A DNA stretch of 43,363 nucleotides, from assembly GCA_048941265.1 (NCBI GenBank), contig JBHLNT010000018.1, forward strand, positions 1 to 43,363. Reading direction: 5' to 3'. Under the pieces are notes generated by a model, which saw nothing but the letters and a program-made list of their open reading frames with translations, was not told where the DNA came from and did not search any database. Of the stretch, positions 3,088-33,061 are shown one piece after another. The position numbers and the translations under genes are program-made. Each line of letters begins with the position of its first letter. Position 1 is the first letter of the stretch. Origin of the DNA: Promethearchaeota archaeon (lineage in GTDB: Archaea > Asgardarchaeota > Lokiarchaeia > Sigyniarchaeales > SOKP01).

Positions 3088-3170
3088 TCCCCTTTGAATT
3101 ATTTGAAAAAATAATTTAATATCCTAAGTATTATTATATCTTAAGTGAATTATTGACTCCGTTTTATATT

Positions 3171-3698
3171 ATGTCAAAACGAGAAAGAATAAAAAAAGCC
3201 CAAGAAAAGCTTGAAATTAGTGGATCAGAGACTTTTACTGAAAAGATCAGAAAAAGAACACCATGGATTTTTGGAACTAAACTAAGAAAACCGAAGATGG
3301 CTTATCCAAAAATAAGAGGTCGAAGGATTGTGCTACCCACCCCATCAAAAGCTTTAGGGCTCGCATTAGTGTATGTAATTCTTTTTATTCTTCAAACGGG
3401 AGTTGTATATTTAGTTTATCGAGATCCTCCTGCTCTTGGGGCTAATGCCAGTGGAGACCCGATATTTCTGTATCCCGGAATCCAGGATAGTTTTATCATT
3501 GAAGGGATAGTCGCTTCTATTTTAATATTTATCGCATCAACTGGATTTTTATTATTATATCAAGCATCAAAATATTCATACAATCGGAAATTAGCTTTAA
3601 GGATTATGGTAATTGGAATTTTTATGATATTAGTGTCTTATGTGTCATTACAATATATGATTGCTGTAAAGTTAGGGCAAAGAGCTTGGTGGGAATAG
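3171..3698 (+). CDS. OSTC/DC2-like oligosaccharyltransferase subunit (OST3/OST6 family transmembrane domain, 3 TM)
   Basis: PS...ALV...GVVY...DPPALG...IFL...FIIEGIVASILIFIASTGFLLL...MIAVKLG follows the eukaryotic DC2 pattern as I recall it (PS...GGIIYD...EPPSVG...QYIMEGLASSFLF..GGLGFIIL...MRMKLP). ATG at 3171 preferred over TTG at 3153. Confidence 0.8.
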   Translation: MSKRERIKKAQEKLEISGSETFTEKIRKRTPWIFGTKLRKPKMAYPKIRGRRIVLPTPSKALGLALVYVILFILQTGVVYLVYRDPPALGANASGDPIFLYPGIQDSFIIEGIVASILIFIASTGFLLLYQASKYSYNRKLALRIMVIGIFMILVSYVSLQYMIAVKLGQRAWWE

Positions 3699-6319: not shown

Positions 6320-7144
6320 TTATAATTTATAATCTTCAATTCCATTTGAAGTGATTCTAAATATTACTTTTTTTTCAGGTAAAAATTCTGAATTCACGAG
6401 ATGTACGTAATTTTTTTCTTCTTTATAACTCAGATACAAGTATTCTGAAAAATAATGATTTAAAAATTGATTTCCGACTGGCAATTCATTTATAATTGCA
6501 CCTTCGATAAAATTTGGATAAACTTGAGCAGTAGCAATCAAAACAATATTAAATTTTTTCATAAGGGTATCGATTTTATCTAGTATTTTTAGATACGCAG
6601 TTTTAAGACTATAAAAAGAAATTTCTTTATTCCCTTGCTCGGATCTGTAGAAAATGTTAATAGAATCTATAACCAATAAATAGGTTTTCCCTGGTTTCAA
6701 TTGATTTTCTATTTCTTTTAATTTTAGCATTAAAGCAGAGTTGCTCATAATCCTTGAAACTTTGATACTTTTAAGAATCTCTTGATATTCAAGCGACTTT
6801 GCTGTTGCTATTTCTTTTATTCTTTCAGGTCTAAAAGTATTTTCACAATCAAGGTAATAGGTAAGGTTGATATCTTGGTTTTTAATATGTTCTGGTTGTT
6901 TAATGAAATATTTATAGGCTTGAATACATAAGTTTAGACAAATTTGAGTTTTACCAGTTCTGTTAGCTCCGAATATTAAATATTTTTTAGTAAGATAAAA
7001 TCCGCCTTTTAAAACTTTATCAAAATTTAATGAATCTAAAGGCAGAATGAATTTAGTTTCTTTAGCATCTTTTATTTTTCTTAAAACAGAATCTTTAAGA
7101 ATCAATTGTTTTTTATTAATATTTAATGTTTCAAGGAGATCCAT
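6320..7144 (-). CDS. RadA/Rad51 paralog (ATPase core only, no N-terminal HhH domain)
   Basis: DKVLKGGF, Walker A GANRTGKTQ, YLDCENTFRPERI, Walker B LLVIDS, PVGNQFLNH. Confidence 0.85.
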   Translation of the reverse strand: MDLLETLNINKKQLILKDSVLRKIKDAKETKFILPLDSLNFDKVLKGGFYLTKKYLIFGANRTGKTQICLNLCIQAYKYFIKQPEHIKNQDINLTYYLDCENTFRPERIKEIATAKSLEYQEILKSIKVSRIMSNSALMLKLKEIENQLKPGKTYLLVIDSINIFYRSEQGNKEISFYSLKTAYLKILDKIDTLMKKFNIVLIATAQVYPNFIEGAIINELPVGNQFLNHYFSEYLYLSYKEEKNYVHLVNSEFLPEKKVIFRITSNGIEDYKL

Positions 7145-12926: not shown

Positions 12927-13616
12927 TTATTTAAATCCATATTCCGATAAATCTAATAGAAAGTTAAATGATTTTATTTCAGAATCTTTTATTAAACTTA
13001 ATTTTCTCACATTTAATTTTTTGGTTCTCCTAATTTGTATCGAAGACTTAATCCAATAATCCACAACGTTGCCTCCACTTTGCACTTCTTTTGTAGTATC
13101 TCCATAATTTTTCCGGCTTATTTCATTGACAATTAAAATTTCAGTCCTATAAGTATCATTTATATTATACAATATTGCGAGTATCTGATTTAATTGGTAA
13201 TTAAGGCTGAAATTTTTTTCCTTTTTGTCCCTATTTAATTCTAAACGATATAAATCAGTAATAGAATCTATAACAATTAATCTTATAGGAGTTTTAATCT
13301 CCTTTAAAAAAGTAAGGGTTAATAACTCAAGATTAAATACAAGTGTACATAAATCTGCAAAATTTAAGGCACATATAAAGATGATATTATTTAAAATATG
13401 CGATGATTTTTCATTAAGGATCTTACTTACTTTCTCATAAGGAAAATTAGGTTTACTATAAATGAACACAATAGGCCCTTCTTTTGCGGTCTTCATCGCA
13501 ATTTGAAGAGCCAACGTCGTTTTACCTACTCCAAAATCACCAAAAACAGAGAGGATACCGGAAATTGGCTTGGATGAATTAAAAAATTCATTTAATTTCG
13601 GAGTGGGAAAATTCAT
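12927..13616 (-). CDS. RadB-like RecA-superfamily ATPase
   Basis: Walker A GDFGVGKT, Walker B LIVIDSITDLYRLE, ILIVNE, GGNVVDYW; 229 aa with no N-terminal domain. Confidence 0.8.
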   Translation of the reverse strand: MNFPTPKLNEFFNSSKPISGILSVFGDFGVGKTTLALQIAMKTAKEGPIVFIYSKPNFPYEKVSKILNEKSSHILNNIIFICALNFADLCTLVFNLELLTLTFLKEIKTPIRLIVIDSITDLYRLELNRDKKEKNFSLNYQLNQILAILYNINDTYRTEILIVNEISRKNYGDTTKEVQSGGNVVDYWIKSSIQIRRTKKLNVRKLSLIKDSEIKSFNFLLDLSEYGFK

Positions 13617-15311: not shown

Positions 15312-16478
15312 ATGAAAAGATATAAATCTATTGATATTATTCGTGGGATTGCTGTCTTTGGCATGGTATTTGGGCATATTCTTAATTGGTGGATAATCCC
15401 CAAAGATTATTGGTTATATTTATTTGTTTATTATGCTCTCGGACCTATCGCAGCGGGAGGATTCTTATTTCTTTCAGGCATGAGTGGTATATTTGCATAT
15501 AAGAAAAGTTTAATAATGGTTGATGAATCAGAGGATTTTAGTATAAATATGGTTAGAAATGGATATTTACTTAGAGCTTTATTGCTTTTATTAATAGCGT
15601 TTCTTTATAATATCCCTATAGCAATAGCAATTAACGACCTTACATGGATTTGGGCGTGGTTTGTATTACAAACGATTGCTTTTTCGCTCTTGCTCGCCTG
15701 GCCCTTTTTAAGAACAACAAAAATATTTAGGATAATTTTTGGAACTGCCATATTGATAATTAATTTTATTGTATTAGAGCTACTTAAACCTTTTCAAGGG
15801 CAATATTATAATATTTATGGAATTCTCTATCACATTTTATATAATCCCTTAGATTTATATCCCATCATTCCGTTTTTTGTAATTTTTCTTATGGGAACTG
15901 TAGCAGGGGAGATATTATATGAGATCAACTTAATCGAAGAAAAACATAAGAGAAATCACGCTTTTAAGAATAAGTTTATTTTTCCATATTTTATTATAGG
16001 GATCTGTTTAACCGTTTTTGCAATCTTATTCCAATTCCCGAGTTTTTTCACATATTCCTCATTTTCAGCCATAGTTTATGCAATTGGAATTATTTGTTTA
16101 ATAGTTTCTGCATTTATATGGATTGAAGAATTTGAGCTTATTAAAACCAAGAGGAATTATAATTTATTTTATTACTATTCATATTATTCATTTACTATCT
16201 TCTTAGTGCATAATTTTCTATATTTACTTTTTTACCAGAGTTTAAACGCAATAACTATCTGGATTCCAATAATAGCTACTATGTTTTTATTTACTCTCCT
16301 ACTTAGATTCACGTATAAAAAATTGGGACCAAAAGCATCTTTGAAGGCTGGAATTGGTATTTTAAGTTTAATAATTGCAATTAAAATAGAGCAGAGAAAA
16401 TATGTCAGAATTGGCAAAATAGAATCTGCTTTAGATCTAGGAAAGTTATTAAAATTCGGCGAAGAAAGAAAAAATTAA
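15312..16478 (+). CDS. Multi-pass membrane acyltransferase (DUF1624 / HGSNAT-like)
   Basis: KRYKSIDIIRGIAVFGMVFGH, FLFLSGMS, VLQTIA, YPIIP, SFTIFLVH; about 10 hydrophobic segments. Confidence 0.78.
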   Translation: MKRYKSIDIIRGIAVFGMVFGHILNWWIIPKDYWLYLFVYYALGPIAAGGFLFLSGMSGIFAYKKSLIMVDESEDFSINMVRNGYLLRALLLLLIAFLYNIPIAIAINDLTWIWAWFVLQTIAFSLLLAWPFLRTTKIFRIIFGTAILIINFIVLELLKPFQGQYYNIYGILYHILYNPLDLYPIIPFFVIFLMGTVAGEILYEINLIEEKHKRNHAFKNKFIFPYFIIGICLTVFAILFQFPSFFTYSSFSAIVYAIGIICLIVSAFIWIEEFELIKTKRNYNLFYYYSYYSFTIFLVHNFLYLLFYQSLNAITIWIPIIATMFLFTLLLRFTYKKLGPKASLKAGIGILSLIIAIKIEQRKYVRIGKIESALDLGKLLKFGEERKN

Positions 16479-16572: not shown

Positions 16573-17352
16573 ATGAAAGAAAGGATTGATATTTTATTAG
16601 TTGAAAGACGTCTTGTAGAAAGTAGAACAAAAGCGCAGTGGTTAATACGAAATGGCTATGCGCTTGTGGATGGTGTTGAGGTTCTAAAACCCGGTAAAAG
16701 AGTTGATAATATTTGCCAAATTCAGTTAAAAGCGCAATTTCCTTACGTTGGCAAAGGAGGTCTTAAATTAGAAGCTGCGTTAAAAGAATTTTCGATTTCA
16801 GTAAAGGAAAAAGTGTGTGCAGATATTGGAAGTTCAGTTGGAGGTTTTACTGATTGTCTTTTGAAACATGGAGCTTTAAGAGTCTATGCAATTGATACTG
16901 CCACTGATCTCCTTCATCCTTCTTTGAGGTGTGAAAAAATGAAAGAACAAGTGATACCTTTATTAGGGGTGGATGCTCGCTTACTAAAAGAATTAGATGA
17001 GAAGGTAGATTTTTGTAGCATTGATGTTACTTTTGCCTCATTGAAAGAGATCCTACCTAATATTAAAAATTTCATTAAACCGACTGGTGATATAATTACA
17101 TTAACAAAACCTATTTTTGAAGCTAAGTTTAAAGGGGTAAATAATTTCCAAACCATTCAAGATCCTCAAAAACTAAAGCAAATTTTATTAAGCTTAATAT
17201 CTTGGTCTATTAATAACGAAATTTTTCCATATAATGTAATGAAATCACCAATCTTAGGCAAAGGAGGTTCAATAGAATTTTTGATACATTTTAAACTCGA
17301 AAAAGAAAGCTTAGAGATCAATTTTAGGGAAAAAATCAATTTAATTGTGTAG
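16573..17352 (+). CDS. tlyA: TlyA-family rRNA 2'-O-methyltransferase (S4 + FtsJ domains)
   Basis: KERIDILLVERRLVESRTKAQ, YVGKGGLKLE, DIGSSVGGFTDCLL, DVTFASL, KPIFE, SPILGKGGSIEFL. Confidence 0.9.
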   Translation: MKERIDILLVERRLVESRTKAQWLIRNGYALVDGVEVLKPGKRVDNICQIQLKAQFPYVGKGGLKLEAALKEFSISVKEKVCADIGSSVGGFTDCLLKHGALRVYAIDTATDLLHPSLRCEKMKEQVIPLLGVDARLLKELDEKVDFCSIDVTFASLKEILPNIKNFIKPTGDIITLTKPIFEAKFKGVNNFQTIQDPQKLKQILLSLISWSINNEIFPYNVMKSPILGKGGSIEFLIHFKLEKESLEINFREKINLIV

Positions 17353-17423
17353 TGTTAAGTAGAAAATCTCAGTTTCTATAAAATAGATATAAATTTTAAT
17401 TCTAAAAAAGATTAAATCTGATT

Positions 17424-17795
17424 TTAGTAGGAATATTTGAAAAAATCTCTCATCTTTAGATTGTTTACAAATTTTTGGAAACGTTGTTCTATAATGGAAT
17501 CATTCAGACCCCATGGCAAATAACCGACTATATATCGCGGAAAATATTCGACAAACCAGCTAGAGTTGAAAAGACAATCTCCAATAAATTGGAGATATTT
17601 AATTTCATTATTATTTGATAATTTTGGCATTTCAAAACAGATAAAAGGGCATTTATGGGTTCCATAGTGATCTTTTTTCATTCCAGAACAAGACATAATA
17701 GTTCTGTATCCTAGGGTATTTATTTCTTGAATATATTTAATAATTCCTCCGTCAATTCCGTATATTTCACAGGTATTTCGAAATTCACTAATCAT
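17424..17795 (-). CDS. Hypothetical protein with GYxTxxSCSG-x4-H motif
   Basis: 123-aa ORF with ATG start filling the gap; IDGGI...INTLGYRTIMSCSGMKKDH. Confidence 0.65.
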   Translation of the reverse strand: MISEFRNTCEIYGIDGGIIKYIQEINTLGYRTIMSCSGMKKDHYGTHKCPFICFEMPKLSNNNEIKYLQFIGDCLFNSSWFVEYFPRYIVGYLPWGLNDSIIEQRFQKFVNNLKMRDFFKYSY

Positions 17796-17882
17796 AATTT
17801 TTAATGGTAGTTCGTTTTTTTAGTAGTATCCCTAATTTAATAAAATAAATTTTTCCTAAATAAAGTATGTCATTATCTATCA

Positions 17883-19088
17883 TTAATTATGCTTATTAAT
17901 TTTTCCTGGGGTACTTGTTGGATAATTCTCAAATTTTTTACCCCATTCTGTCTCCATGAATCCTCTAATCCTTTTTTTACCGACTGTAGGATACCAAAAC
18001 ATGTCATGATACACCATTGAACCCAAAATGGGTAAAACCATAAAGAGTTTGTTATGCATTAATGGATGTAAAAAAGATAATTTGCCTTTTCTTACCATCT
18101 GATCACCCCAAATGACCAAGCTGCGCTTTACTTCGAATTTCCAGTTTAATTCGGACACATCCTCTCCAATAATCTCAATTTGATCAAAATCTCCACATCC
18201 CAAACCTTCATCATGGGCAATTTTTATAGCGGGAAGAGACATGGGGTCAAAGCCCATCATTTTAGCAACAACTGCATCAACAGCAACTTGGTCATAACCA
18301 GCGAGCAAATAATTTTTTATGCACGGTATCATGGTCCTCGGTCCTGCACCATCTCCACAAACGGTTCCATCTACAACTGCCATAATTTCGGGGTGTATCT
18401 GTTTCTGTATTATTAGAAGATCTACCAATACCTCCGACATATATTGATGACTAAAATGACGTCTTTTTGTCAAAAGACCTCCGAAGGCGTTCTTAAGAGC
18501 GCATGTTATACCTCCATTCTTTAACGCTTCATTGGTCTGTTTTAAAGAGCCTCCGACAGCGCCAGTATGACCGTGTGTTTTCATGGTGGGAGTATGAATA
18601 ATTGGCTTCCCAAGATAAAATTGTGGTATTTTAAATCCTTTTGGAAATATCTTAGAATCTAATACGTGTAATTCTTTATCTTTTAATGTTTCAAATTTTG
18701 AACGTAATTCGTCATTATAGGGAATGAACGGAACTCTGGTTAAAGGAACGAACCAAGCTCCATATTTTTTAATTATTGATTCCCAGCGATTTCCGGAAAG
18801 CCCTTTTGCGATATTTGTCACCACCGTCCTGTTTTCAGCGGTAAAGATTTTTTTCGGGTCATAACCATCTTCTAACATGGTCTTTAAGACTCCTTCCACT
18901 TGCCAAGGTGGGCTAGAGCATGCGGGAAAGAATTTCGACCAGCTAAGGTTGAGTTTAATGATGGTTTTAAGGTCTTTTGGGAATCGTTTTTGATATTGAG
19001 CGAGATGCATCAATTTAGAGTAGTCATCTAGAACAGTATCTGGTGATGTTTTTATGACGAAGATTTGAGGTTTATCTGACATTATCAT
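17883..19088 (-). CDS. DUF362-domain protein (no ferredoxin module)
   Basis: IIKLNL, PTMKTH, ITCALKNAFG, RHFSH, VVDGTVCGDGAGP, DQVAVDAV..KMMGFDP, AHDEGLG. Confidence 0.85.
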   Translation of the reverse strand: MIMSDKPQIFVIKTSPDTVLDDYSKLMHLAQYQKRFPKDLKTIIKLNLSWSKFFPACSSPPWQVEGVLKTMLEDGYDPKKIFTAENRTVVTNIAKGLSGNRWESIIKKYGAWFVPLTRVPFIPYNDELRSKFETLKDKELHVLDSKIFPKGFKIPQFYLGKPIIHTPTMKTHGHTGAVGGSLKQTNEALKNGGITCALKNAFGGLLTKRRHFSHQYMSEVLVDLLIIQKQIHPEIMAVVDGTVCGDGAGPRTMIPCIKNYLLAGYDQVAVDAVVAKMMGFDPMSLPAIKIAHDEGLGCGDFDQIEIIGEDVSELNWKFEVKRSLVIWGDQMVRKGKLSFLHPLMHNKLFMVLPILGSMVYHDMFWYPTVGKKRIRGFMETEWGKKFENYPTSTPGKINKHN

Positions 19089-19092
19089 GCAT

Positions 19093-19779
19093 TTAAAAGT
19101 AGAATCCCTTTTTTAATTTATTGAAAACGGTTTTAGCATGTACAAAAGGACTTGAAAGTACTCCCATGCTTTTTGATTTATTTGCTAACAAACTTTTTCT
19201 AATATTTTCAAGAGAATAGTCAGCATCACTAATGACCGTATAAGCATTTCCAATTTCCTCATTTGAATGAGCATCAGAGCCACCAGTTTCAAAAAGTTGA
19301 TGCTTTTTATTAAATTTTCGTGCTTTGTTGATGCATTTTTTAAAAATTATTCTAGAATTAATTATTTCTATACCATCTATATATTTTTTGATAATATTAT
19401 CTGGTAATAGATTAATTTTTAAACGATTATCTCTTAAAAAATCAAATGGATGAGGAACGATAACTAATCCATTATTTTCTTTTACTTTTTCAACTATACC
19501 AAAAAAATCATTCTCACTAGTTTTAATTTCTTCATTAATAAAAATAGCAATGATTTCTCCAATGTGAGTTTTAATTTCCATTCCTGGAATGATGATTAAT
19601 TCATTATTATGATTTTTTTTTTTTAAAATATTATATGCTTTTAAAGTATTATGATCAGTTATGGCGAACCCATCCAATTTCTTAATTTTGGCAAATTTTA
19701 AAGCAGATTCGGGAGCGATTAATGAATCTCCAGAATAAATAGTATGTAAATGTAGGTCCAATTTAATAATATTCAACAA
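19093..19779 (-). CDS. PHP-domain metal-dependent phosphoesterase
   Basis: DLHLHTIYSGD, AITDHN, GMEI, VPHPF, IEIINSR, GGSDAH. Confidence 0.92.
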   Translation of the reverse strand: MLNIIKLDLHLHTIYSGDSLIAPESALKFAKIKKLDGFAITDHNTLKAYNILKKKNHNNELIIIPGMEIKTHIGEIIAIFINEEIKTSENDFFGIVEKVKENNGLVIVPHPFDFLRDNRLKINLLPDNIIKKYIDGIEIINSRIIFKKCINKARKFNKKHQLFETGGSDAHSNEEIGNAYTVISDADYSLENIRKSLLANKSKSMGVLSSPFVHAKTVFNKLKKGFYF

Positions 19780-19787
19780 GGTTTACC

Positions 19788-20735
19788 TTAGAATAAATTA
19801 TTTATTAAGAGTATAAATTCATCAAAATAAAAAGAATAGGACAGAATTCCTACAAAAAAAACTCCGGCAATAATCATGCCTTTATCGAGAAATGCTTTCT
19901 CAGTATTTCGAGCAATTTCAGGTTTAGCTGATGTTAAATACATATATCTGAAAATTACATATAAAATTAATGGAATTGTTAAAATTGCTAAATATTCGTG
20001 CAGATTGACTCTTTCTGCTGCAAATAGATTAAAATGAATGATAAGATAAAGAGAATAAGTAATAAATAGTGAACCTGCTATTATCACATGAAACTGTTCT
20101 AATAGTTTAATTGAATACTGGTCATAGCTTTTCTTATGAGCAATAGCATTTTCTTCACCTAAAGAATTCAATAACATAAGATCTCCCTTTCTTTTAGCGA
20201 TAACTAGAAAAAGAGCTATTTCAAATATTGCCAAGAATAACCAAGGTGAGATAAAAACATCAATTAAAAAGCAGCCTGCTAAAGCACGCCATAAATAAAT
20301 TATCGATAAACATAAAATATCAATAAAAGCATATTTTTTAAACACATGATTATATAATTGTCCAGTTATTATAACTAATAATATCATTATAGCAAAATTC
20401 CAGTTAGATATAATGAATAAGAGTGAGAACCCAATTATTGCTGTTAATAAAATTAATAATAATAGAGCAAATGTTACTGAAATCTCTCCTGAAGCGAGAG
20501 GTCTGTTTTTCATTTTTTCAGGATGCCTTTGATCCTTCTCTATATCCCTAATATCATTTATAATGTAATTAATAGATGAAGCACAGCATAATAAAATAAA
20601 TCCTAGAAAGAGAATAGGGTAAAGAGAAAAATCTAGTAAACTTTCACTAAAAAAAGCTCCCCAGAAAATTAAAGTATTTTTATAATATTGTCTGACACGT
20701 AATAGGTTAAGAATATTTTTAATTCTACTAGACAT
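19788..20735 (-). CDS. UbiA-superfamily polyprenyl-phosphate phosphoribosyltransferase (DPPR synthase-like)
   Basis: LRVRQYYKN, YIINDIRDIEKDQRHPEK..RPLASG, K...FID, RALAG, SPWL, KRKGDL, YSLY, FRY: pattern of the DPPR synthase branch rather than DGGGP synthase. Confidence 0.82.
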   Translation of the reverse strand: MSSRIKNILNLLRVRQYYKNTLIFWGAFFSESLLDFSLYPILFLGFILLCCASSINYIINDIRDIEKDQRHPEKMKNRPLASGEISVTFALLLLILLTAIIGFSLLFIISNWNFAIMILLVIITGQLYNHVFKKYAFIDILCLSIIYLWRALAGCFLIDVFISPWLFLAIFEIALFLVIAKRKGDLMLLNSLGEENAIAHKKSYDQYSIKLLEQFHVIIAGSLFITYSLYLIIHFNLFAAERVNLHEYLAILTIPLILYVIFRYMYLTSAKPEIARNTEKAFLDKGMIIAGVFFVGILSYSFYFDEFILLINNLF

Positions 20736-20762
20736 TATAAATTTCTAAAAAACGCATTTAAA

Positions 20763-23279
20763 TTAAAGTTTATTAACGTAAAAAATGCTCCTTGGTTTAA
20801 ATTTATGCAAGATTTTATATCCCAGTCTGCTAAACATACTTGTTTCAGATTTTAATTGCATCATAGCAGTATTATAGTCAAAAGTTATTAATTCTAATGA
20901 GTTATATTCGATAGTTTTTTCTTTGCCGAATATATTTTTAACAATAATACTATTCTGGGTTTCAATTTCTTCATTGTTGACGTTTTTCTTTAAATTACTT
21001 CTGTTAACATTTACCAATTGAATGTAACCTATTTCTAAATTATTTACGGGTTTCTTAAGGTAAATATATGAAAAAACCTGATTTTTTATCATCCAATTTA
21101 TTAAATCAATCTCAGAATTTCGAAAATCTAAATTATTACTAATGGAGAGATAAATCGTCTTAGGGCGAATTATTAGATCTTTTAGGTAATATTTAATACT
21201 ACTTTCATCTAAAGAATTTTTTAGTTCTATCTCGTAATCATCTAAAATTTTTGCTAATTTCACATTTATGCATTTAAAAACTTTTAATTTTCCTTTCATT
21301 TTAAGGAAAACATCCATATCCTCAAAACTCTTTATTATTTCATCTGAATTGGGCAATTTCGTTTTTCTAATAGGTTTTAAGATTTTTTTACCCTCAGCAA
21401 GAAAAAGATAATTTCCCCCTTTTTTATCTTCATTCAAAAGGATATCATTTAAGATAAACGGTGTGTTTTTAAAATAATATCTTTCACCAAATTTTATCCT
21501 AATTTTACTAAATATAGAAGCATTAAGATATTCTTTTTGATTAGTTTTTAGATTTGTAATAATGTATTGATCAGCATCGCATACTTCATCAAGAAATTGA
21601 ATATCATCTAATCTGCCGATAATTAGTTCCTCTGTAATTAAATTTTTAAATATAAATTCATTGTTAAGTTCATATTTATATAATGTTTTTCTTTCAAGCC
21701 GTTCGATTATTTTTGATATATTATTAATATCAAATAACTCCTTAAATTTCTCATTAGCTATAATTTTAAATGCTTTACGTGCTTTTTCAAATTTCATTGC
21801 ATATTTAATTTGTTTTGATCTTTTTAAACAGATAAATGGAAGCAATGCTTCTTTACCAGGTTTCAATTCGTCACTTAAAATTGCTGCGATTCTAAAATAT
21901 GAAGGAGGATGGGAATTCATAAAATTAGCTAAAAGTGATCCTCTGGAAGGTTTAATCATTGAACTATATAAATATTCTGCTGTTTTAATATAGTCTAATA
22001 TTTGATTTTCTCTTGTTATTTTTTCATCGCATAATAGCATTGTATTTAATCCAAATTCCCGACCTGTTGCATAAAAGCTTTCTAAATTATAAAGTGCTTT
22101 AGCAAGTTCTTTTGCATAACCAGATTTCTTTGCATACAAATCAGCATTTCCTTCTAGGATTCTTACGAAAATATAAATGAACATATAGATCACGATATTA
22201 AGGAGGATAAAATATATCATTGGAATTTTCGGATTACCAAAAGTATAATCATAATAAGTCGCTGGCAAATCTAAGATCATACGTATAAATAAATCAATAG
22301 TAGCTATAAAAGTTAAAATAAGAGTATGATTTCCCTTTGTATGGGATAATTCATGTGCAACTATTCCTTTCAACTCATCTTCAGGTATTTGATCTTTTGA
22401 TTCCGCAATAACAGCAATTCTTTTATCAAAAAAGGAACCGTAAGCCAAAGCATTTAAAATCGGATATTTACCAAAACCAACCTTAACTTTTCCTTTAATC
22501 CCAATATCATTCTTAACATTTTCAACTAAATTTAATAACTCTTCATCATCTACTCGTTTGATTCCTAATAATTTGTCAAGAATTGGACCAGAAATGAAAT
22601 ATACTATCCAATTAACTATAATTAAGACTGGATATATTAATTGGACTTCAAATGGACCAAAAGGAGTATGGATACTAAAATCGATTAGAGTATATTGGTT
22701 AATAAAAATCACTGCTAACCATGCGATAATGTATAAAAATAATGTGAGATATGCTGGACTCATGAACCTCCATACTATAATATATTTTCTTCCAAATAAT
22801 ATAAAACCTAAGCCAAGAATAATCCAAAATGAAAAAGCAAATGCAGTATTAAGATAAAATGGATTATTTAAATATGCAGAAAATAATCCAGCTATGAATA
22901 TTACATTGTATGTTACTAAAGATATTACTAGAATTTTATTTAGGATTGGATAATCTTTCAACTCAAATATTCCAAACCATAAATATATACTAAAAGCACC
23001 CATCAATGAGGTTAAAAGGTCTTTCGTGAAGAAGAAAATTAGAAAGAAGAAAAATGCAATAGCAACAAGATCACTCATTTCGCTACGGCGCCCTATCTTT
23101 GCCCAATGCACGAATTCTTGAATTGTAATAAAATAAAGGAAAACTACAACATAGAAACTCCAATCAATAAAAATTTCAGACCAATCTGGTTGAAAAAAAA
23201 TAAATCCAACCAAGTAAAATGTAATTATTGAGCCAAAAATATAAAAAATTAATAGTAAATACCTTGCTACCTTTTTCAA
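20763..23279 (-). CDS. M48 (HtpX/Ste24-like) zinc metalloprotease with N-terminal multi-TM domain and ~300-aa soluble C-terminal extension
   Basis: LNALAYG, ELKGIVAHELSH (HExxH), EGNAD (third ligand), LAKALYNL, SHPP..FRI. Confidence 0.88.
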   Translation of the reverse strand: MKKVARYLLLIFYIFGSIITFYLVGFIFFQPDWSEIFIDWSFYVVVFLYFITIQEFVHWAKIGRRSEMSDLVAIAFFFFLIFFFTKDLLTSLMGAFSIYLWFGIFELKDYPILNKILVISLVTYNVIFIAGLFSAYLNNPFYLNTAFAFSFWIILGLGFILFGRKYIIVWRFMSPAYLTLFLYIIAWLAVIFINQYTLIDFSIHTPFGPFEVQLIYPVLIIVNWIVYFISGPILDKLLGIKRVDDEELLNLVENVKNDIGIKGKVKVGFGKYPILNALAYGSFFDKRIAVIAESKDQIPEDELKGIVAHELSHTKGNHTLILTFIATIDLFIRMILDLPATYYDYTFGNPKIPMIYFILLNIVIYMFIYIFVRILEGNADLYAKKSGYAKELAKALYNLESFYATGREFGLNTMLLCDEKITRENQILDYIKTAEYLYSSMIKPSRGSLLANFMNSHPPSYFRIAAILSDELKPGKEALLPFICLKRSKQIKYAMKFEKARKAFKIIANEKFKELFDINNISKIIERLERKTLYKYELNNEFIFKNLITEELIIGRLDDIQFLDEVCDADQYIITNLKTNQKEYLNASIFSKIRIKFGERYYFKNTPFILNDILLNEDKKGGNYLFLAEGKKILKPIRKTKLPNSDEIIKSFEDMDVFLKMKGKLKVFKCINVKLAKILDDYEIELKNSLDESSIKYYLKDLIIRPKTIYLSISNNLDFRNSEIDLINWMIKNQVFSYIYLKKPVNNLEIGYIQLVNVNRSNLKKNVNNEEIETQNSIIVKNIFGKEKTIEYNSLELITFDYNTAMMQLKSETSMFSRLGYKILHKFKPRSIFYVNKL

Positions 23280-23450
23280 TGAAAATACCTATGGAACTTA
23301 ATTTATTGCTATAAATCTTAAAATATTAATTTAAACCTATAAAAATACGTAAGAATCGTTCATTAAAACACAAATTATTATGGTTAAGTAAATGATAATT
23401 AATTTATAAAATGACAACTTGTATGGTCAAAAAATTATATTTTTTGTATT

Positions 23451-24815
23451 TTATGCTTCAAGACTTTTTATCTTATTAATTTGAGCCCAAAAATATCGAA
23501 TAGTCATATAGTACCAGATTAATAGCATAGGAAAATAGAGTAAAAATGAAAAGACAATATTGGCAGGTACTCTCACAACTAATAAATTGATATCTGGATA
23601 TTTTAGGGGCATAATAAATAAATCAATAATTATTAAAAAAGCCATACTCGCAAGTAATAGTATGATCATTAAAAAGATAATTCCTCTAATTCTTGGAAAT
23701 TTATATAATAAAAATGATGTAGGAATTATAAAAATGCATATAATAGTAATTGGTATTATAAGATTTAGCTTACCACTTGTCCATTGCATTAATAGAACGG
23801 CAATAATTGAGAAAAATCCGCATATAATGGAAATTACATAAAAATTTTTGACTAATTCTGGTTCTGTTAAGGGTCCTTTCACAAGAATTAACCTAGGTAA
23901 CGTCAAGGCAGCATCTCTTTGATCAGATGCCTTAATTAGATCATTTTCTAATAAAATAACATCATGTTTAGTTTCTATAATTACAGAACTTTCAATAAAA
24001 CCTTTAACAGAACTAATCACATAAAAACTATTAAATACGTGAATTAAAATAGCACAGAATACAGCAACTTCAATAGAGCCAAATAATGCAATACATGCAA
24101 TCATAGCTCCCATACTCAACGTACCAACATCTCCAGGGAAAATTTTTGCGGGATATTTATTATATAAATAAAAGGGAATAATTACTGCAATCGCAACTAT
24201 AGAAAAGAGTAATGCTTCTGCCGAATCCCATATTATGGCACATATTAAAATAAAAAAAACGGCTATTAAACATGTTCCACTACCTTCACCATTATACCCT
24301 TCCAACATATTTACCGTATTAGCAAAGACTGCTATTATTATTGGAATCAATAATGGATATATTATAGTTAATCTTGTTGCTCCGAGAAAAGGAATAATAG
24401 GTGACGAGATATGAATAAAACCGAAATAATTGGCAAAAAAAATAAAACTTCCGGTAAAGATGGTTAAAGCGATTTTATACCTCGATCTCAATTTAATTCT
24501 ATCATCTATCAGGCCAATTATTCCCGCTAAAATAACGGTTAGTATAAAAATTAAGATCTCATTAAAAAATTTCGGGAATAAGGTCAATAGCAAGACAGAT
24601 GAGATAAATATTCCGATAACCATACTAATACCGCCGGATTCTGCTACCTCTGGATTCTCATTTTTATGGATATCATATCCAACATATCCTTTTTTTTTCA
24701 TTATTTTAATTAAATAGGGAATAAGCAACAGAGTCACTATAAACCCCGTCGCAAAAACTATTAAAATATAGAAAATTTCTAATAATCCCCATTTCATTTC
24801 GGATATTCTTAACAT
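23451..24815 (-). CDS. aglH: UDP-GlcNAc:dolichyl-phosphate GlcNAc-1-phosphotransferase (AglH/ALG7/DPAGT1-like, MraY superfamily)
   Basis: GYDIHK...VAESGG, IGLIDD, NTVNMLEGYNG, NKYPAKIFPGDVGT, LTL...E.ELV. Confidence 0.82.
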   Translation of the reverse strand: MLRISEMKWGLLEIFYILIVFATGFIVTLLLIPYLIKIMKKKGYVGYDIHKNENPEVAESGGISMVIGIFISSVLLLTLFPKFFNEILIFILTVILAGIIGLIDDRIKLRSRYKIALTIFTGSFIFFANYFGFIHISSPIIPFLGATRLTIIYPLLIPIIIAVFANTVNMLEGYNGEGSGTCLIAVFFILICAIIWDSAEALLFSIVAIAVIIPFYLYNKYPAKIFPGDVGTLSMGAMIACIALFGSIEVAVFCAILIHVFNSFYVISSVKGFIESSVIIETKHDVILLENDLIKASDQRDAALTLPRLILVKGPLTEPELVKNFYVISIICGFFSIIAVLLMQWTSGKLNLIIPITIICIFIIPTSFLLYKFPRIRGIIFLMIILLLASMAFLIIIDLFIMPLKYPDINLLVVRVPANIVFSFLLYFPMLLIWYYMTIRYFWAQINKIKSLEA

Positions 24816-24956
24816 TTTATGTATTTTTATTGATTTGTTTTGCTAAAATCCTTTAATAAATAGTTTTAAAATTTAAAATATTTGTTTCATAAAAACCTTT
24901 TATTTTTTAAATATCAATTTGGATCTAATGTAAAATTATGAGATATATAAATAAAA

Positions 24957-25059
24957 TAGCCCGGCACGGATTCGAACCGTGTTTGCGATACGTCTCGTAA
25001 TGAGTCATATAGTCGCGGGGTTCAAAGCCCCAAATGCTTGGCCACTACACCACCGGGCT
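24957..25059 (-). tRNA. tRNA-Gln(UUG) with 30-nt intron (24982-25011); CCA not encoded
   Basis: Acceptor AGCCCGG/CCGGGCT, D-arm GTGTAGTGGCCAAGCAT, anticodon arm TGGGG-CTTTGAA-CCCCG, T-arm CACGG-TTCGAAT-CCGTG; removing 30 nt gives a 73-nt tRNA with variable loop CGAC. Confidence 0.93.
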
Positions 25060-25068
25060 TTAATGATT

Positions 25069-25692
25069 TTATATGTTAAAAGGTTTTAGGTCTTGGTTTA
25101 AAAATTCATCATCTAATAAATTTTTATTGGTTTTCAGAAATTCAATCTCTTTTTGCTCATCTCTATATTCATCAGGGAGCATTTGTGGTATTGTCTCTAT
25201 TATGGGAAACCAACGATAACATTTTTCACAAAATAAAATTCCGGATTCGATTTCAGATTCGATTTTTAGCTTATTTATTAAATAGAGTTCAGGTAAAATT
25301 TCCTCTACTTTTTCCTTATTTAAATTTTTAGAGAATTCTATTATCCGCTGCTTAATCACTGTTCTTGCAATATCAAGAGTTTTTTTGCTTATATCATAAG
25401 GAGATTTATCCCTAATATTGATCAATTCATTAAGGCTTGAAATTATCAGATCAAGATACACTTCTAGTGTATTTTCTTCAATAATAACATTATCTTTGAG
25501 GTAAAGGTTTTGATCTTTCTTAAGAATTTTTATAATATCTTCCTTTTTAATCTGTTCGATATCTCTTTTGTCATAAATATTTAGAAATGATTCAAAATCT
25601 TCTGGTTTATTTTCATAGTTGAAAATAAAAAGTTTTAAAGGAAAATGTTTATCAATTGGACAAGCAAGAATATCAAATAGCCAAGGTTTCAT
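25069..25692 (-). CDS. trm112: Trm112-family methyltransferase activator with long internal insertion
   Basis: MKPWLFDILACPIDK.FPLKL and EIESGILFCEKCYRWFPIIETIPQMLP separated by ~125 aa; ATG at 25692 follows GGAG. Confidence 0.85.
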   Translation of the reverse strand: MKPWLFDILACPIDKHFPLKLFIFNYENKPEDFESFLNIYDKRDIEQIKKEDIIKILKKDQNLYLKDNVIIEENTLEVYLDLIISSLNELINIRDKSPYDISKKTLDIARTVIKQRIIEFSKNLNKEKVEEILPELYLINKLKIESEIESGILFCEKCYRWFPIIETIPQMLPDEYRDEQKEIEFLKTNKNLLDDEFLNQDLKPFNI

Positions 25693-25742
25693 AATAATCT
25701 CCAAAATTATTAAGAGATTAAATTCGTATAAATTTTATGATA

Positions 25743-27608
25743 TTATAGAAGATAACTCCTTAATTGTTGTATATTTTTATCAATACTTCTGTCTATTCTT
25801 TTTCTTCTATTTAAAAAATTTTCAGTTAAATTAAGATATGCCTTTCTTGAGGGAAGGCGTCCTCTTCTATATCTAACTTCTAAAAGATTTAAACTATCAT
25901 TAACACTTAAACGCTCTGCTTCAAGTACCTCTATTTTGCTAATTATATTTTCAAAGGTGGCATTTGTATCTCTTACAATTTTGCTAAATGGAATAATCTC
26001 TTTTTCAATTTCTTCTATTTTTTTTGTATTTTTATCTAAAATATTTCGATACTTCTTTTTAATTATCTTTTTTCTTCTTAAATCTTCCTCTGCTTGCCTG
26101 ATTTCTATAAGGAGTGCATTTCTTTCGTCATATAACGAGCAAAATTCACGTATTTCATTAATTGGAAGTAATTCTTTTCTAAAAGCAGCATAAGCTACGG
26201 ATTCTTTTCTTGTTTTAACAAAAAATACATATAAGGATGAGATTAGCGAGATAAGAATAAAAAATACGATTGGCCTTAAACTCATATCTAAATAATTAAG
26301 TGTATATGTAAATTGAATTTCATATTCTTCAGATGGAACGATATAATCAGATTCATAAACTAATATAATAGAATTTTGAGAATGTTCGATAGCAACGGGG
26401 GGTTCAGACACATAATCTAAACTAAAACAGCCCTCAATAACAAGTTTAATCGTTTGATCTCTTCCCAAGTATTCATAAATTGAGGTTAATAAATCCATTT
26501 TAATTGAAATTTGAAACCAATTTAATGAATAGTATTTTTCAAAAGGTAAAAAGTATTGAATGGTAAATTTGAATTTTGAACCTGGAGTAATATCAGCCCG
26601 ATTTTCCGATAAATCAATATATAAATCTTTATATGTTAAATTATAATAGTTTTCCTCAGGGTCTATAGTGACTCCTAATATCTCACCTAAATCATCATAA
26701 ACTTTTACCTCCTTAGCAGGCCCTGGAATTTCAAATTCTAATTCATTAAAGTCAATCGCACCTTTGTTTCTAATCTCATAGTCCTCCGTTACTTTAATAA
26801 TACCCCAAGGAGAGATATAGATTTCTCTTATTATTTCATTAAATTCCAATCTTGTTACCTCATCATCAGATAACAGAATTTCAATTTGTTCACCACCTTC
26901 CAAATTTTCTAAAAAAGGTTCAAGATGATCTTTACTAGGTGAAAAATCTGCTAAATTAAAAGTAATCGTGTCTTCTGCGCTATCTTCCTTACCCCAATCT
27001 GATTGGGTTGTTAGAGCAGTATCAGGTATTTTGTATATAGCTTTTATACTACCTTGGGCTCTATAAGGCATAAGAGGATAAACATAACCAGTGAAATTTA
27101 TTTGTTGAATTACGGATGGTTCTTCAGTATAAATTAACATATCTTTATAAGAATGCAGGATTTTTAGCTCTATCGCTTCTTGGGGCCGTAATGGCGAATC
27201 GAAATATATTGCAATCATTTCAAAACCTTTCATAACCACCTCATTCTGTTCAATAGATAAAGTGTTCCCACCTTCTCCTCTTGCTTCAAAAAAGACTAGA
27301 TTATCAACCTGAGTTAATGGCACTCCGAAATATATAGCTGTAATCGGATTATCATTTTTATTTTGAATTTTAATCGTGTCTTCAATATTTACTAACCCAA
27401 ATCCGTTCAATTCAGCTTCTCGATCAATTTTAGTAATTAATATATTATCTGCTCCCTCTAAACTTGCTGCAATTTTTGGGTGTTTGTTATCTTTTAAATC
27501 ATAATTTTGATCATAATTAACCCTTGATGAGGAGGGAATTAATGAAAAACCAATAATCATTAAAATTATTCCAGTGAAAACAAATAACACTATTTTTTTC
27601 CTAAACAT
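25743..27608 (-). CDS. Ribophorin I (OST1/RPN1)-like type I membrane protein
   Basis: N-terminal signal/hydrophobic segment, two related beta-rich luminal units (REAELNGFGLVNIEDTIKIQN; REIYISPWGIIKVTEDYEIRNKG...VYDDLG), single TM, helical cytosolic tail. Confidence 0.8.
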   Translation of the reverse strand: MFRKKIVLFVFTGIILMIIGFSLIPSSSRVNYDQNYDLKDNKHPKIAASLEGADNILITKIDREAELNGFGLVNIEDTIKIQNKNDNPITAIYFGVPLTQVDNLVFFEARGEGGNTLSIEQNEVVMKGFEMIAIYFDSPLRPQEAIELKILHSYKDMLIYTEEPSVIQQINFTGYVYPLMPYRAQGSIKAIYKIPDTALTTQSDWGKEDSAEDTITFNLADFSPSKDHLEPFLENLEGGEQIEILLSDDEVTRLEFNEIIREIYISPWGIIKVTEDYEIRNKGAIDFNELEFEIPGPAKEVKVYDDLGEILGVTIDPEENYYNLTYKDLYIDLSENRADITPGSKFKFTIQYFLPFEKYYSLNWFQISIKMDLLTSIYEYLGRDQTIKLVIEGCFSLDYVSEPPVAIEHSQNSIILVYESDYIVPSEEYEIQFTYTLNYLDMSLRPIVFFILISLISSLYVFFVKTRKESVAYAAFRKELLPINEIREFCSLYDERNALLIEIRQAEEDLRRKKIIKKKYRNILDKNTKKIEEIEKEIIPFSKIVRDTNATFENIISKIEVLEAERLSVNDSLNLLEVRYRRGRLPSRKAYLNLTENFLNRRKRIDRSIDKNIQQLRSYLL

Positions 27609-27762: not shown

Positions 27763-27987
27763 ATGTCAAGTCGTCAAAGACAATCTAGACGTAAAAAAAG
27801 AAGAAGTGGAAGCTCGCCCATGCCTGCGGGTGGGGCGGGATTAATGAGGTTTTTTGAAGATAGTTCAATTGGTATTAAAATAGGTCCAATAAGCACTATA
27901 TTGATGTCAGCCTTATTAATTGGTGTCGTAATTATGGCACATTTAGGAATTCTTGATTGGCTCTTCACTCCAGGTTCAGCCGGTTAA
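27763..27987 (+). CDS. secG: Protein translocase subunit Sec61beta
   Basis: Basic N-terminus, GAGLMRFFEDSS.GIKIGP, one TM ending in AHL. Confidence 0.93.
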   Translation: MSSRQRQSRRKKRRSGSSPMPAGGAGLMRFFEDSSIGIKIGPISTILMSALLIGVVIMAHLGILDWLFTPGSAG

Positions 27988-32689: not shown

Positions 32690-33061
32690 GTGAGTGAAAA
32701 TATCAGCGAACTCATCGAACTTCTAAGACAAATGGAGGCTATAAACTCGGAAATACAAGGTTCCGCTATAGTCTCGATACAAGGCTTACCCATCTGTTCA
32801 GTCCTCGCTCGTGATGTAAATGACGGGATTGTATCAGCAATGTCAGCTGCAATTCTATCTGTTTCAGAAAGGGCTGTTGATGAGCTCGCACGAGGAGAGC
32901 TTAAAAGAATTCTTATAGAAGGCAAAGATGGTATAATTATATTATCGAGAGCGGGCTCAAATGCGATATTATGCACTCTTGCGCGTTCAAATGCATCTTT
33001 AGGTATGGTTTTCTTGAATATCGAAAGTGTAAGTAGAAAAATCGCAGATTTATTAGATTAG
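32690..33061 (+). CDS. Roadblock/LAMTOR2-domain protein
   Basis: IQGSAIVSIQGLPI, VSAMSAAILSVSERAVDELARGELKRILIEG..G, LGMVFL; GTG start. Confidence 0.92.
   Translation: MSENISELIELLRQMEAINSEIQGSAIVSIQGLPICSVLARDVNDGIVSAMSAAILSVSERAVDELARGELKRILIEGKDGIIILSRAGSNAILCTLARSNASLGMVFLNIESVSRKIADLLD

Follow-up and report, generated by a model that had tools for sequence, protein, structure and literature searches.

Three adjacent minus-strand genes in a contig of 43,363 nucleotides from a Promethearchaeota archaeon (the whole analysed stretch, here called the window) encode a UbiA-family protein (19788..20735, 315 aa), a PHP phosphoesterase (19093..19779, 228 aa, TTG start) and a DUF362 protein (17883..19088, 401 aa). 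We consider the odds slightly in favour of the trio carrying out the cytoplasmic steps of a pathway to a lipid-linked pentofuranose donor, in which the UbiA, PHP and DUF362 proteins would act in that order. Support is good for a pathway to a dolichyl-phosphate-pentose donor, dolichol being the presumed lipid, and the most likely product of the trio is ribose, or a derivative of it, attached to a membrane lipid and intended for surface glycans. The window's ORF list agrees with the earlier note on this DNA that the three co-oriented genes are separated by only 8 and 4 nt; alternative starts (a second TTG or an ATG) would change these gaps to 11 and 10 nt.

Related loci were collected by a search of genome contigs seeded with a closer homolog alignment. 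The synteny sample consisted of the best 80 loci, with counts given over 78 of them (individual loci carry L numbers), and the tree was obtained by a quick IQ-TREE search. In 45 of these 78 loci (20 of 34 Asgard, 9 of 16 other archaeal, 16 of 28 bacterial) no more than 10 kb separates a DUF362 ortholog from a UbiA gene. When only loci flanked by 5 kb or more on each side are counted, the distance is 5 kb or less in 7/21 Asgard, 5/7 other archaeal and 13/17 bacterial cases. The UbiA gene is not in the flank of DUF362 in 33 of the 78 loci, including some with full 10-kb flanks (among them L013, L018, L046 and L057), and in L034 the DUF362 ortholog is accompanied by GT-C and flippase-like genes but not by UbiA. 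The linked loci span Asgard archaea, DPANN, methanogens, Acidobacteriota, Omnitrophota, Aminicenantes and Patescibacteria, with varied gene orders and orientations, and in L042, L050 and L073 the pair is a bare two-gene cassette. The clustering of UbiA and DUF362 is far beyond chance since the synteny crosses phyla, and there is strong support for a functional coupling between DUF362 and the UbiA gene. Lack of synteny elsewhere had been named in the earlier note as an outcome that would speak against its proposal; the trio, or its UbiA-DUF362 core, was found well outside Lokiarchaeia. Close Loki genomes do have long stretches of gene order in common, and housekeeping genes make up many of the neighbour clusters that recur, as expected if the three genes were mere inherited neighbours in Lokiarchaeia whose adjacency has no functional meaning, but the recurrence of the pair in DPANN, methanogens and the bacterial groups above, in differing orders and orientations, makes this explanation highly improbable.

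The UbiA protein is, judged by its sequence, a DPPRS-type polyprenyl(dolichyl)-phosphate 5-phosphoribosyltransferase. It matches Pfam UbiA (PF01040; 84.9 bits, E = 7.3e-24), has eight predicted TM helices and contains the NDxxDxxxD motif, of which N60, D61, D64 and D68 are invariant in 45 DUF362-linked UbiA sequences. Three DPPRS models and the HAD-UbiA model rank highest in NCBIfam (E = 3.5e-51 to 1.2e-25), and the next class follows at 7.7e-13. The top model, the DPPRS equivalog NF008977, gives 174.3 bits, which is under its cutoff of 234; of nine short UbiA proteins beside DUF362 orthologs, five pass the DPPRS cutoff (L041, L042, L049, L073 and L075). The only PDB sequence matches are 8j8j/8j8k, the mycobacterial Rv3806c (E = 1.9e-19). 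Alignment against the published residue list for Rv3806c (PMC10994848) shows that 11 of its 12 PRPP-contact residues (R22, K28, Y70, N73, D77, K87, R90, Y138, K143, Y157 and K208) are identical in the window protein, the single mismatch being Q135, which aligns to G125 with Q126 adjacent. The matched contacts cover the pyrophosphate, ribose and 5'-phosphate ligands, and the last of these are not conserved in other UbiA enzymes (PMC10994848). In window numbering, R13, K19, Y57, N60, D64, K74 and Y128 are invariant in all 45 DUF362-linked proteins. The homology and the active-site residues suggest that the enzyme would move 5-phosphoribose from PRPP onto a polyprenyl monophosphate, presumably dolichyl phosphate. 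A PRPP synthetase gene is found directly upstream in L058, L064 and L065. The earlier note had counted a grouping with DGGGP or quinone prenyltransferases as evidence against its view; NCBIfam, PDB and contact residues all place the protein with DPPRS, and both of these identities were rejected on the NCBIfam ranking and the Rv3806c-only PDB matches.

The second protein matches Pfam PHP (38.3 bits, 2.2e-9) and PHP_C (43.7 bits, 2e-11), each above cutoff, and has weak PDB matches to the PHP phosphoesterases 3e0f and 2anu. Nine residues (D8, H10, H12, D42, H43, E68, H110, D169 and H171) are the same in all 18 PHP homologs compared, and we take H10, H12, H43, E68, H110, D169 and H171 to be metal ligands. 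Pfam finds no HAD domain in the window trio, where PHP is present instead. PHP homologs occur in 16 of 50 archaeal loci and in none of 28 bacterial loci; 10 of 16 bacterial UbiA partners have at least 400 aa, and the four long DUF362-linked UbiA proteins that were tested are HAD-fused, all passing the HAD-UbiA model. PHP and the fused HAD phosphoribose-phosphatase thus occupy complementary sets of loci. Of 20 Asgard loci with a UbiA gene, 12 are without PHP; an Opp-type operon sits in between in eight PHP-less Asgard loci, and in L054 UbiA and DUF362 are directly adjacent. On the basis of the synteny and the complementary distribution it is plausible that the PHP protein is the 5'-phosphatase of the lipid-linked phosphoribose, which would yield polyprenyl-P-ribofuranose. 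A further candidate for the phosphatase missing from the short-UbiA bacterial cassettes is DUF362 itself; we rejected it because its fold is unlike that of a phosphatase and because it is found together with PHP or HAD in other loci.

The genes upstream of the trio lie on the same minus strand. Pfam matches agree with the earlier note in placing there aglH, a GT4 (AglH/Alg7-like) polyprenyl-phosphate sugar-1-phosphate transferase gene (23451..24815, 454 aa; Glycos_transf_4, 104.4 bits) with homologs in seven related Asgard loci, and a homolog of the OST complex subunit ribophorin I (25743..27608, 621 aa; Ribophorin_I, 63 bits, cutoff 25). Two same-strand upstream genes were missing from that note, a Trm112-like ORF (25069-25704) and an M48 metalloprotease gene (20763..23279, 838 aa; Peptidase_M48, 61.6 bits, HELSH motif). 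The latter ends 27 nt before the UbiA start with no gene between, and its homologs in 14 Asgard loci adjoin the UbiA gene each time. Its AlphaFold2 model (pLDDT 78.5) is that of a membrane zinc metalloprotease with a ZMPSTE24/Ste24-like fold and a beta-rich C-terminal domain, the top 11 Foldseek matches all being ZMPSTE24/Ste24p (E = 5e-8 to 2e-5). A scan of positions 17300-25200 in this AT-rich archaeon gave 53 promoter-like and 4 terminator-like sites, the expected numbers being 51.2 and 3.0, and a search of the window for tRNA genes and Rfam families found nothing.

In the final step the donor would be flipped, and a GT-C glycosyltransferase outside the membrane would then use it to decorate N-glycans or S-layer glycans. 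Genes for this step are seen in related loci only, and no flippase or GT-C glycosyltransferase was recognised among 42 ORFs scanned in the 43-kb window. The related loci contain flippase-like TIGR00374 proteins (L034, L047, L063, L072 and L075), an EamA pair (L049), Wzx (L045 and L048), PMT_2-type GT-C proteins (L034, L049 and L075) and STT3/AglB (L049), and the archaeal and Omnitrophota loci also hold GT2, sugar-nucleotide and glycan-modifying genes. Glycan genes are lacking in the vicinity of several bacterial cassettes. These cassettes, and the window with no recognisable GT-C or flippase, would fit a UbiA product that is a membrane lipid or cofactor intermediate, for instance a phosphoribosylated headgroup processed by DUF362 and PHP, and no glycosyl donor. 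We regard such a product as improbable, as the archaeal and Omnitrophota pairs lie amid the glycan genes just listed and the window cluster is beside the AglH-like and ribophorin I genes.

The DUF362 protein, whose gene is better conserved than any other in the cluster, matches Pfam DUF362 (PF04015) with 64.7 bits (cutoff 24, E = 1.6e-17) in two stretches separated by a lineage-specific insert. It is predicted to be soluble, with no TM helix, and Pfam shows no ferredoxin domain in it, as the earlier note had claimed. The conserved-looking K, H and C residues proposed there held for lysine and histidine, with H165 in 63, K170 in 65 and H172 in 64 of 75 homologs (none of the three invariant), but not for the cysteines, which are not conserved except for C57 (57/75). 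D240, D266 and D271 are present in all 75. The C-terminal segment, described as amphipathic and W/F-rich, is indeed hydrophobic and aromatic-rich (9 W/F/Y in 51 residues), but it is not amphipathic, since its helical hydrophobic moment is 0.04-0.28 and the protein as a whole averages 0.22. Inteins are inserted within the conserved PTxK|TH motif, between K170 and T171, in 8 of the 16 representatives that were scanned. The AlphaFold2 model (pLDDT 93.4, pTM 0.93) resembles the LarA fold: the Foldseek comparison suggested in the earlier note returned LarA-family racemases as four of the five matches at E <= 1e-3 (E = 9e-5 to 9e-4, probability 0.99-1.00), a remote resemblance with TM 0.31-0.36 and 8-14% identity, and the best match was 4nar, an uncharacterised T. 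maritima protein. Pfam gives no LarA_N/DUF2088 match, only DUF362, and PDB sequence searches with the single protein and with a 75-sequence profile gave chance-level matches only, with no LarA. The top scores of an ESM Atlas search were below 0.8, and a complex prediction for the UbiA and DUF362 proteins scored 0.01 against a mark of 0.32, which has no bearing either way. Pfam clan CL0471, according to the part of PMC11770544 drawn on here, unites DUF362 and LarA_N. The family is large (2986 cluster representatives at E <= 1e-3), and no link between DUF362 and DPPRS was found in the literature searched.

The fold makes DUF362 attractive as a candidate epimerase. LarA-family racemases, the known substrates of which are 2-hydroxy acids, epimerise through a transient keto intermediate, and the hydride transfer by which they invert a carbinol carbon is what a ribose 2'- or 3'-epimerase would need. 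We infer that the soluble LarA-like protein would work on the ribosyl moiety, most likely by a redox-neutral epimerisation via a transient keto intermediate at C2 (giving arabinofuranose) or C3 (giving xylofuranose), with the conserved residues H165, K170 and H172 and the three invariant aspartates (D240, D266 and D271) as its active site. The fully specified form of this idea, a single-protein LarA-type polyprenyl-phospho-ribose epimerase that replaces DprE1/DprE2 and has a hydride-accepting cofactor, possibly a nickel-pincer nucleotide, tightly bound at K170/H172, is rather unlikely. In agreement with the earlier note, a domain scan of 42 of the 43 window ORFs found no DprE1-type (FAD_binding_4), DprE2-type or PAP2 domains; nor were such genes present among 183 annotated neighbour proteins of related loci, so that the co-occurrence with dprE1/E2 which that note regarded as unfavourable was not seen in either set. 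LarB/C/E were not noted among the annotated neighbours.

A FAD oxidoreductase occurs beside DUF362 in five DPANN/Methanosarcinales loci, however, two of which also carry an SDR, and this weakens a simple replacement of DprE1/E2 by DUF362; the FAD oxidoreductase and SDR of those loci could themselves be the epimerase pair. The earlier interpretation was supported in part, namely in the DPPRS identity, the synteny, the complementary phosphatases and the LarA-like fold. With polyprenyl-P-ribose made as proposed, DUF362 may instead catalyse another step, such as a redox reaction together with the FAD oxidoreductase, an isomerisation of ring or position, or a different modification, or be a non-catalytic accessory subunit of the synthase; we hold this to be possible, at clearly less than an even chance. 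In line with it, DUF362 paralogs directly adjoin a FAD oxidoreductase of PRK07233 type in L034, L036 and L066, the ortholog is near one in L066 and L080, an SDR is nearby in L049 and L080, and the bare UbiA-DUF362 cassettes indicate a coupling tighter than that of known auxiliary epimerases. In addition, the portion of PMC5742341 used here reports secreted DUF362-CBM9-dockerin proteins, and the fold may therefore act on carbohydrates without a diffusible redox cofactor. The nearest solved folds, on the other hand, are all racemases or epimerases, and the strong sequence constraint, the invariant aspartates and the intein-hosting His/Lys/His motif point to a catalytic site and away from a scaffold.

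The proposed pathway would be an archaeal counterpart to the mycobacterial decaprenyl-phospho-arabinose pathway, which consists of the DPPRS Rv3806c, the phosphatase Rv3807c and the DprE1/DprE2 epimerase. The first enzyme is of the same family with the same PRPP-binding residues, the phosphatase is encoded by a separate gene, and the logic would be the same, from lipid-P-ribose-5-P via lipid-P-ribose to a modified pentose. The differences are a PHP phosphatase where mycobacteria have PAP2, a LarA-like DUF362 protein as conserved third gene with no DprE1/DprE2 in the window or among annotated neighbours, and an archaeal host, presumably with dolichol as carrier. It would likewise be a counterpart to the bacterial three-component pentofuranose systems (Kelly et al. 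2024), as far as these are described in the sections of PMC11127046 cited here, where the Citrobacter youngae system consists of ORF15 PPPRS-PRP, a MATE flippase, a GT136 GT-C and an optional SDR epimerase. Both would have a polyprenyl-P-ribose synthase and a dedicated phosphatase, the HAD-UbiA fusion (NF006088) is shared with the acidobacterial relatives, and the related loci add genes for a flippase, a GT-C protein and, optionally, an enzyme that modifies the sugar. In the window, however, the candidate phosphatase is a separate PHP protein and no flippase or GT-C gene was recognised among the 42 ORFs scanned, such genes being found in the relatives L034, L049, L063 and L075. The flippase candidates in the relatives are TIGR00374/MprF-like, EamA or Wzx in place of MATE, their GT-C genes are PMT_2-like, and DUF362 is not part of the three-component systems in that description. 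The third system, the LarA lactate racemase superfamily of nickel-pincer nucleotide enzymes, is linked to DUF362 by the Foldseek matches and a common Pfam clan (PMC11770544, in the part used here), whereas sequence similarity to LarA is not detectable and the Pfam assignment is to DUF362 and not to LarA_N.

No function has been assigned to the large DUF362 family, and its tight linkage to DPPRS across two domains of life offers a concrete substrate hypothesis. If the pathway is correct, lipid-linked pentofuranose donor pathways reach archaea, beyond Actinobacteria and Gram-negative O-antigens, including an Asgard lineage in which the genes lie beside AglH-like and ribophorin I homologs, and the PHP-type phosphatase would be a third, non-homologous solution for the dephosphorylation step. 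If DUF362 is the epimerase, it would offer a route other than the DprE1/DprE2 chemistry, and the LarA-like fold would acquire a new class of reaction. Should the LarA-type mechanism itself hold, the ability to produce lipid-linked arabinofuranose or xylofuranose for glycosylation outside the cytoplasm could extend to Asgard archaea, DPANN, methanogens and several bacterial phyla, and the LarA/DUF362 clan would gain its first sugar substrate and its first lipid-linked substrate.

The trio lies on the minus strand of the window, which has a G+C content of ~29% and whose proteins have their closest relatives under the labels Promethearchaeota and Lokiarchaeota. It encodes a UbiA protein (20735..19788, 315 aa; Pfam UbiA), a PHP protein (19779..19093, 228 aa; Pfam PHP and PHP_C) and a DUF362 protein (19088..17883, 401 aa; Pfam DUF362), with spacings of 8 nt and 4 nt. 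The earlier note described this layout correctly but skipped two intervening upstream genes, namely an M48 metalloprotease (20763-23279, minus strand, 838 aa), which ends 27 nt before the UbiA start, and a Trm112-like ORF; GT4/AglH-like and ribophorin I genes also lie upstream on the same strand. The absence of DprE1/DprE2 and PAP2, which it had likewise stated, agrees with our scan, as no DprE1-, DprE2- or PAP2-type domain was detected in the 42 of 43 window ORFs that were scanned. Eukaryote-like Asgard signature genes in the window are, besides ribophorin I, OST3/OST6 (3153-3698), Sec61-beta (27763-27987), Roadblock/LC7 (32690-33061) and two RadA/Rad51 paralogs (6320-7144 and 12927-13616). 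Together with the labels of the closest relatives, the OST3/OST6, ribophorin I, Sec61-beta and Roadblock/LC7 homologs mark the window as Asgard archaeal DNA.

The proposal that the UbiA protein is a DPPR synthase is supported by sequence comparison. The four best NCBIfam models comprise three for decaprenyl-phosphate phosphoribosyltransferase (DPPRS) and HAD-UbiA, with E-values between 3.5e-51 and 1.2e-25; the class ranked after them reaches 7.7e-13, and the best score of 174 bits is under the equivalog cutoff of 234. In a PDB sequence search two entries of mycobacterial Rv3806c were the only matches at E <= 0.01 (E 1.9e-19), with no other UbiA-family chain at that threshold. The PRPP-contact residues of Rv3806c, taken from PMC10994848, were compared with the window protein by pairwise alignment: R22, K28, Y70, N73, D77, K87, R90, Y138, K143, Y157 and K208 are identical to R13, K19, Y57, N60, D64, K74, R78, Y128, K133, Y147 and K202, respectively, while Q135 is aligned to G125, adjacent to Q126. 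Since the phosphoribose ligands are described in the same text as unconserved in other UbiA enzymes, their presence specifically favours PRPP as the donor. Seven PRPP-contact residues are invariant across 45 of 45 aligned DUF362-linked UbiA proteins. Judged by sequence, the window protein is a phosphoribosyltransferase-type member of the UbiA family.

An alignment scan with DUF362 against one genome per GTDB species gave 600 matched stretches; confirmation succeeded for 586, and we retained the best 80. The DUF362 ORF could be called in 78 of these loci; of the remaining two, L019 has a gene broken by masked bases. Among the 78, a DPPRS-like UbiA gene lies within 10 kb of DUF362 in 20/34 Asgard, 9/16 other archaeal and 16/28 bacterial loci, and within 5 kb in 7/21, 5/7 and 13/17, respectively, of the loci with at least 5 kb on both sides. 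Against a strict rule, no UbiA gene is found in the flank at 33 of the 78 loci, some with full 10-kb flanks, and in L034 the DUF362 ortholog occurs with GT-C and flippase-like genes and without UbiA. The trio or its UbiA-DUF362 core is syntenic in Asgard, other archaea and bacteria, in varied gene orders. The window order recurs in seven Asgard loci (L001, L003, L005, L008, L025, L028, L029) and in Parvarchaeota L048; other arrangements are UbiA-12TM-PHP-flippase-like-DUF362 (L063), UbiA-PHP-flippase-like-DUF362 (Methanobacterium L075), PHP-GT-C-DUF362-UbiA-EamA-EamA (Methanosarcinales L049), convergent DUF362 and UbiA (L030, L035), two-gene UbiA-DUF362 cassettes in Omnitrophota, Aminicenantes and others (L041, L042, L044, L050, L069, L073) and PRPP synthetase-DUF362-HAD-UbiA in Acidobacteriaceae (L058, L064, L065). 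In eight Loki loci (L002, L011, L012, L015, L016, L017, L022, L027) UbiA and DUF362 are split by an Opp/Dpp-type ABC transporter operon and an M28 peptidase gene, ~8 kb, and no PHP gene was detected between them. In a quick maximum-likelihood tree a long branch with full support separates all 79 DUF362 orthologs from four paralogs; support is also full for a Loki clade (32 rows) and for a bacterial clade (27 rows), and UbiA linkage is present in both clades and in the remaining archaea. Because the linkage outlasts such rearrangement and phylogenetic distance, it indicates functional coupling of DUF362 with UbiA.

Several neighbouring genes were recorded in addition. The M48 protein has a predicted ZMPSTE24/Ste24p-like fold (model pLDDT 78.5; top 11 Foldseek matches E 5e-8 to 2e-5) and a C-terminal beta-rich domain of ~300 aa; its homologs adjoin UbiA in 14 Asgard loci of the best 80, and L063 has a small M48 gene ~1.5 kb upstream of UbiA. 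An HGSNAT/Acyl_transf_3 transmembrane acyltransferase (15312-16478, plus strand), 1.4 kb from the trio, has homologs (cluster 6) near DUF362 in 22 of the best 80 loci and may be a glycan O-acylation partner. Just downstream of DUF362 is a 123-aa ORF (17424-17795, minus strand) that matches neither Pfam nor NCBIfam models and lacks homologs in the best 80 loci. The Acidobacteriaceae clusters (L058 8979-12705; L064 9010-12731; L065 9011-12718) are followed by conserved secreted proteins of unknown family, one of ~600 aa without Pfam match and one of ~335 aa weakly similar to FGE-sulfatase.

Of the best 80 loci, 8 from Asgard and 8 from other archaea contain PHP homologs (E < 1e-20), as against 0/28 from bacteria, and UbiA is present in 15 of these 16 PHP loci, the exception (L037) being a 4.7-kb contig. 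The bacterial UbiA partners are at least 400 aa long in 10 of 16 cases; the HAD-UbiA model NF006088 (cutoff 351) scored the four long ones tested at 526-633 bits. Their domain layout matches that of Citrobacter youngae ORF15, in which, according to PMC11127046, the HAD domain is the phosphoribose phosphatase. PHP is missing in 12/20 Asgard UbiA loci of the best 80 and in the six short-UbiA bacterial cassettes. The conserved PHP His/Asp/Glu residues, which we take to be metal ligands, are intact in the homologs. From these ligands and the complementary PHP/HAD distribution we infer that PHP is likely the 5'-phosphatase of the lipid-linked phosphoribose.

No TM helix is predicted in the DUF362 protein, which is soluble and in every comparison better conserved than the neighbouring UbiA, PHP, GT4 and M48 proteins (identity 73-85% across Lokiarchaeia, 43-47% to bacterial orthologs). 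D223, D240, D266, D271, a GDGxGPR loop and an HLPTxKTH motif are invariant or nearly so. Of the 16 cluster representatives scanned, 8 (P0241, P0242, P0246, P0247, P0256, P0257, P0261, P0350) contain an intein, which in most of them includes a LAGLIDADG endonuclease. The insertion falls precisely between the Lys and Thr/Cys residues of HLPTxK(T/C)H, which correspond to K170/T171 in the intein-free window copy. Inteins usually sit at functionally critical sites, and HLPTxKTH is on this ground the probable active site. A Gly/Lys-rich insert of 17 residues (window 18507-18557, codons 178-194), specific to the Lokiarchaeial DUF362 proteins, follows a few residues after this motif and is modelled with lower confidence (pLDDT 77-81); a second insert of ~10 residues lies near residues 127-137. 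The C-terminal segment, which the earlier note called amphipathic and W/F-rich, is not amphipathic by a hydrophobic-moment test; it is rich in aromatic residues, conserved and confidently modelled.

DUF362 and LarA_N belong to one Pfam clan according to PMC11770544. A comparison with LarA had been proposed, and when the AlphaFold2 model (pLDDT 93.4, pTM 0.93) was searched against the PDB with Foldseek, four of the five matches at E <= 1e-3 were LarA-family racemases, namely malate racemase Mar2 (7s91) and three chains of Isosphaera LarA (9eid, 9eia), the fifth being 4nar, an uncharacterised T. maritima protein; further LarA entries (2yjg, 9q3j, 8ezf) followed, and the likeness is remote, with TM-scores of only 0.31-0.36 and identities of only 8-14%. 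In LarA enzymes, hydride transfer via a keto intermediate inverts a carbinol centre, and DprE1/DprE2 apply formally the same chemistry to decaprenyl-P-ribose, so that the idea of DUF362 as a putative epimerase, with putative cofactor ligands, metal and substrate, is chemically coherent.

The genes around the related loci include ribose-phosphate diphosphokinase (198 bits, cutoff 113), TIGR00374 flippase-like proteins, an EamA half-transporter pair, Wzx-type flippases, PMT_2-type GT-C proteins, STT3/AglB, GT2, GT9, DegT, sugar-nucleotide enzymes, deacetylases and methyltransferases; by annotation this is the parts list of extracytoplasmic glycosylation with a lipid-phosphate-sugar donor. A scan of 183 neighbour proteins detected no DprE1-type or PAP2 domain. 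In five DPANN/Methanosarcinales loci an amine-oxidase-type FAD oxidoreductase (PRK07233) is encoded beside a DUF362 gene, in two together with an SDR, and since such an oxidase/reductase pair could itself be the epimerase, DUF362 is no more than a candidate for that role. The DUF362 genes that directly adjoin PRK07233/amine-oxidase-type FAD oxidoreductases in DPANN glycan loci include distant paralogs, which match the window protein at E 1e-17 to 1e-28 (L034 3623-8007; L036 3740-6021; L066 1500-4157), which suggests that the DUF362-flavoenzyme pairing is recurrent.

The trio appears to work like the mycobacterial DPA pathway and the three-component pentofuranose systems and is a member of neither as defined: its phosphatase family differs from both, it has neither the DprE1/E2 of the former nor the SDR epimerase of the latter, and the window, unlike the three-component systems, has no recognisable flippase or GT-C. 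In the main text of freely available papers, we found neither a report linking DUF362 to polyprenyl-phosphoribose synthesis nor a description of an archaeal DPPRS system. Overall, the assignment of the trio to a lipid-linked pentose pathway is well supported, and the enzymology of DUF362 becomes a testable question.
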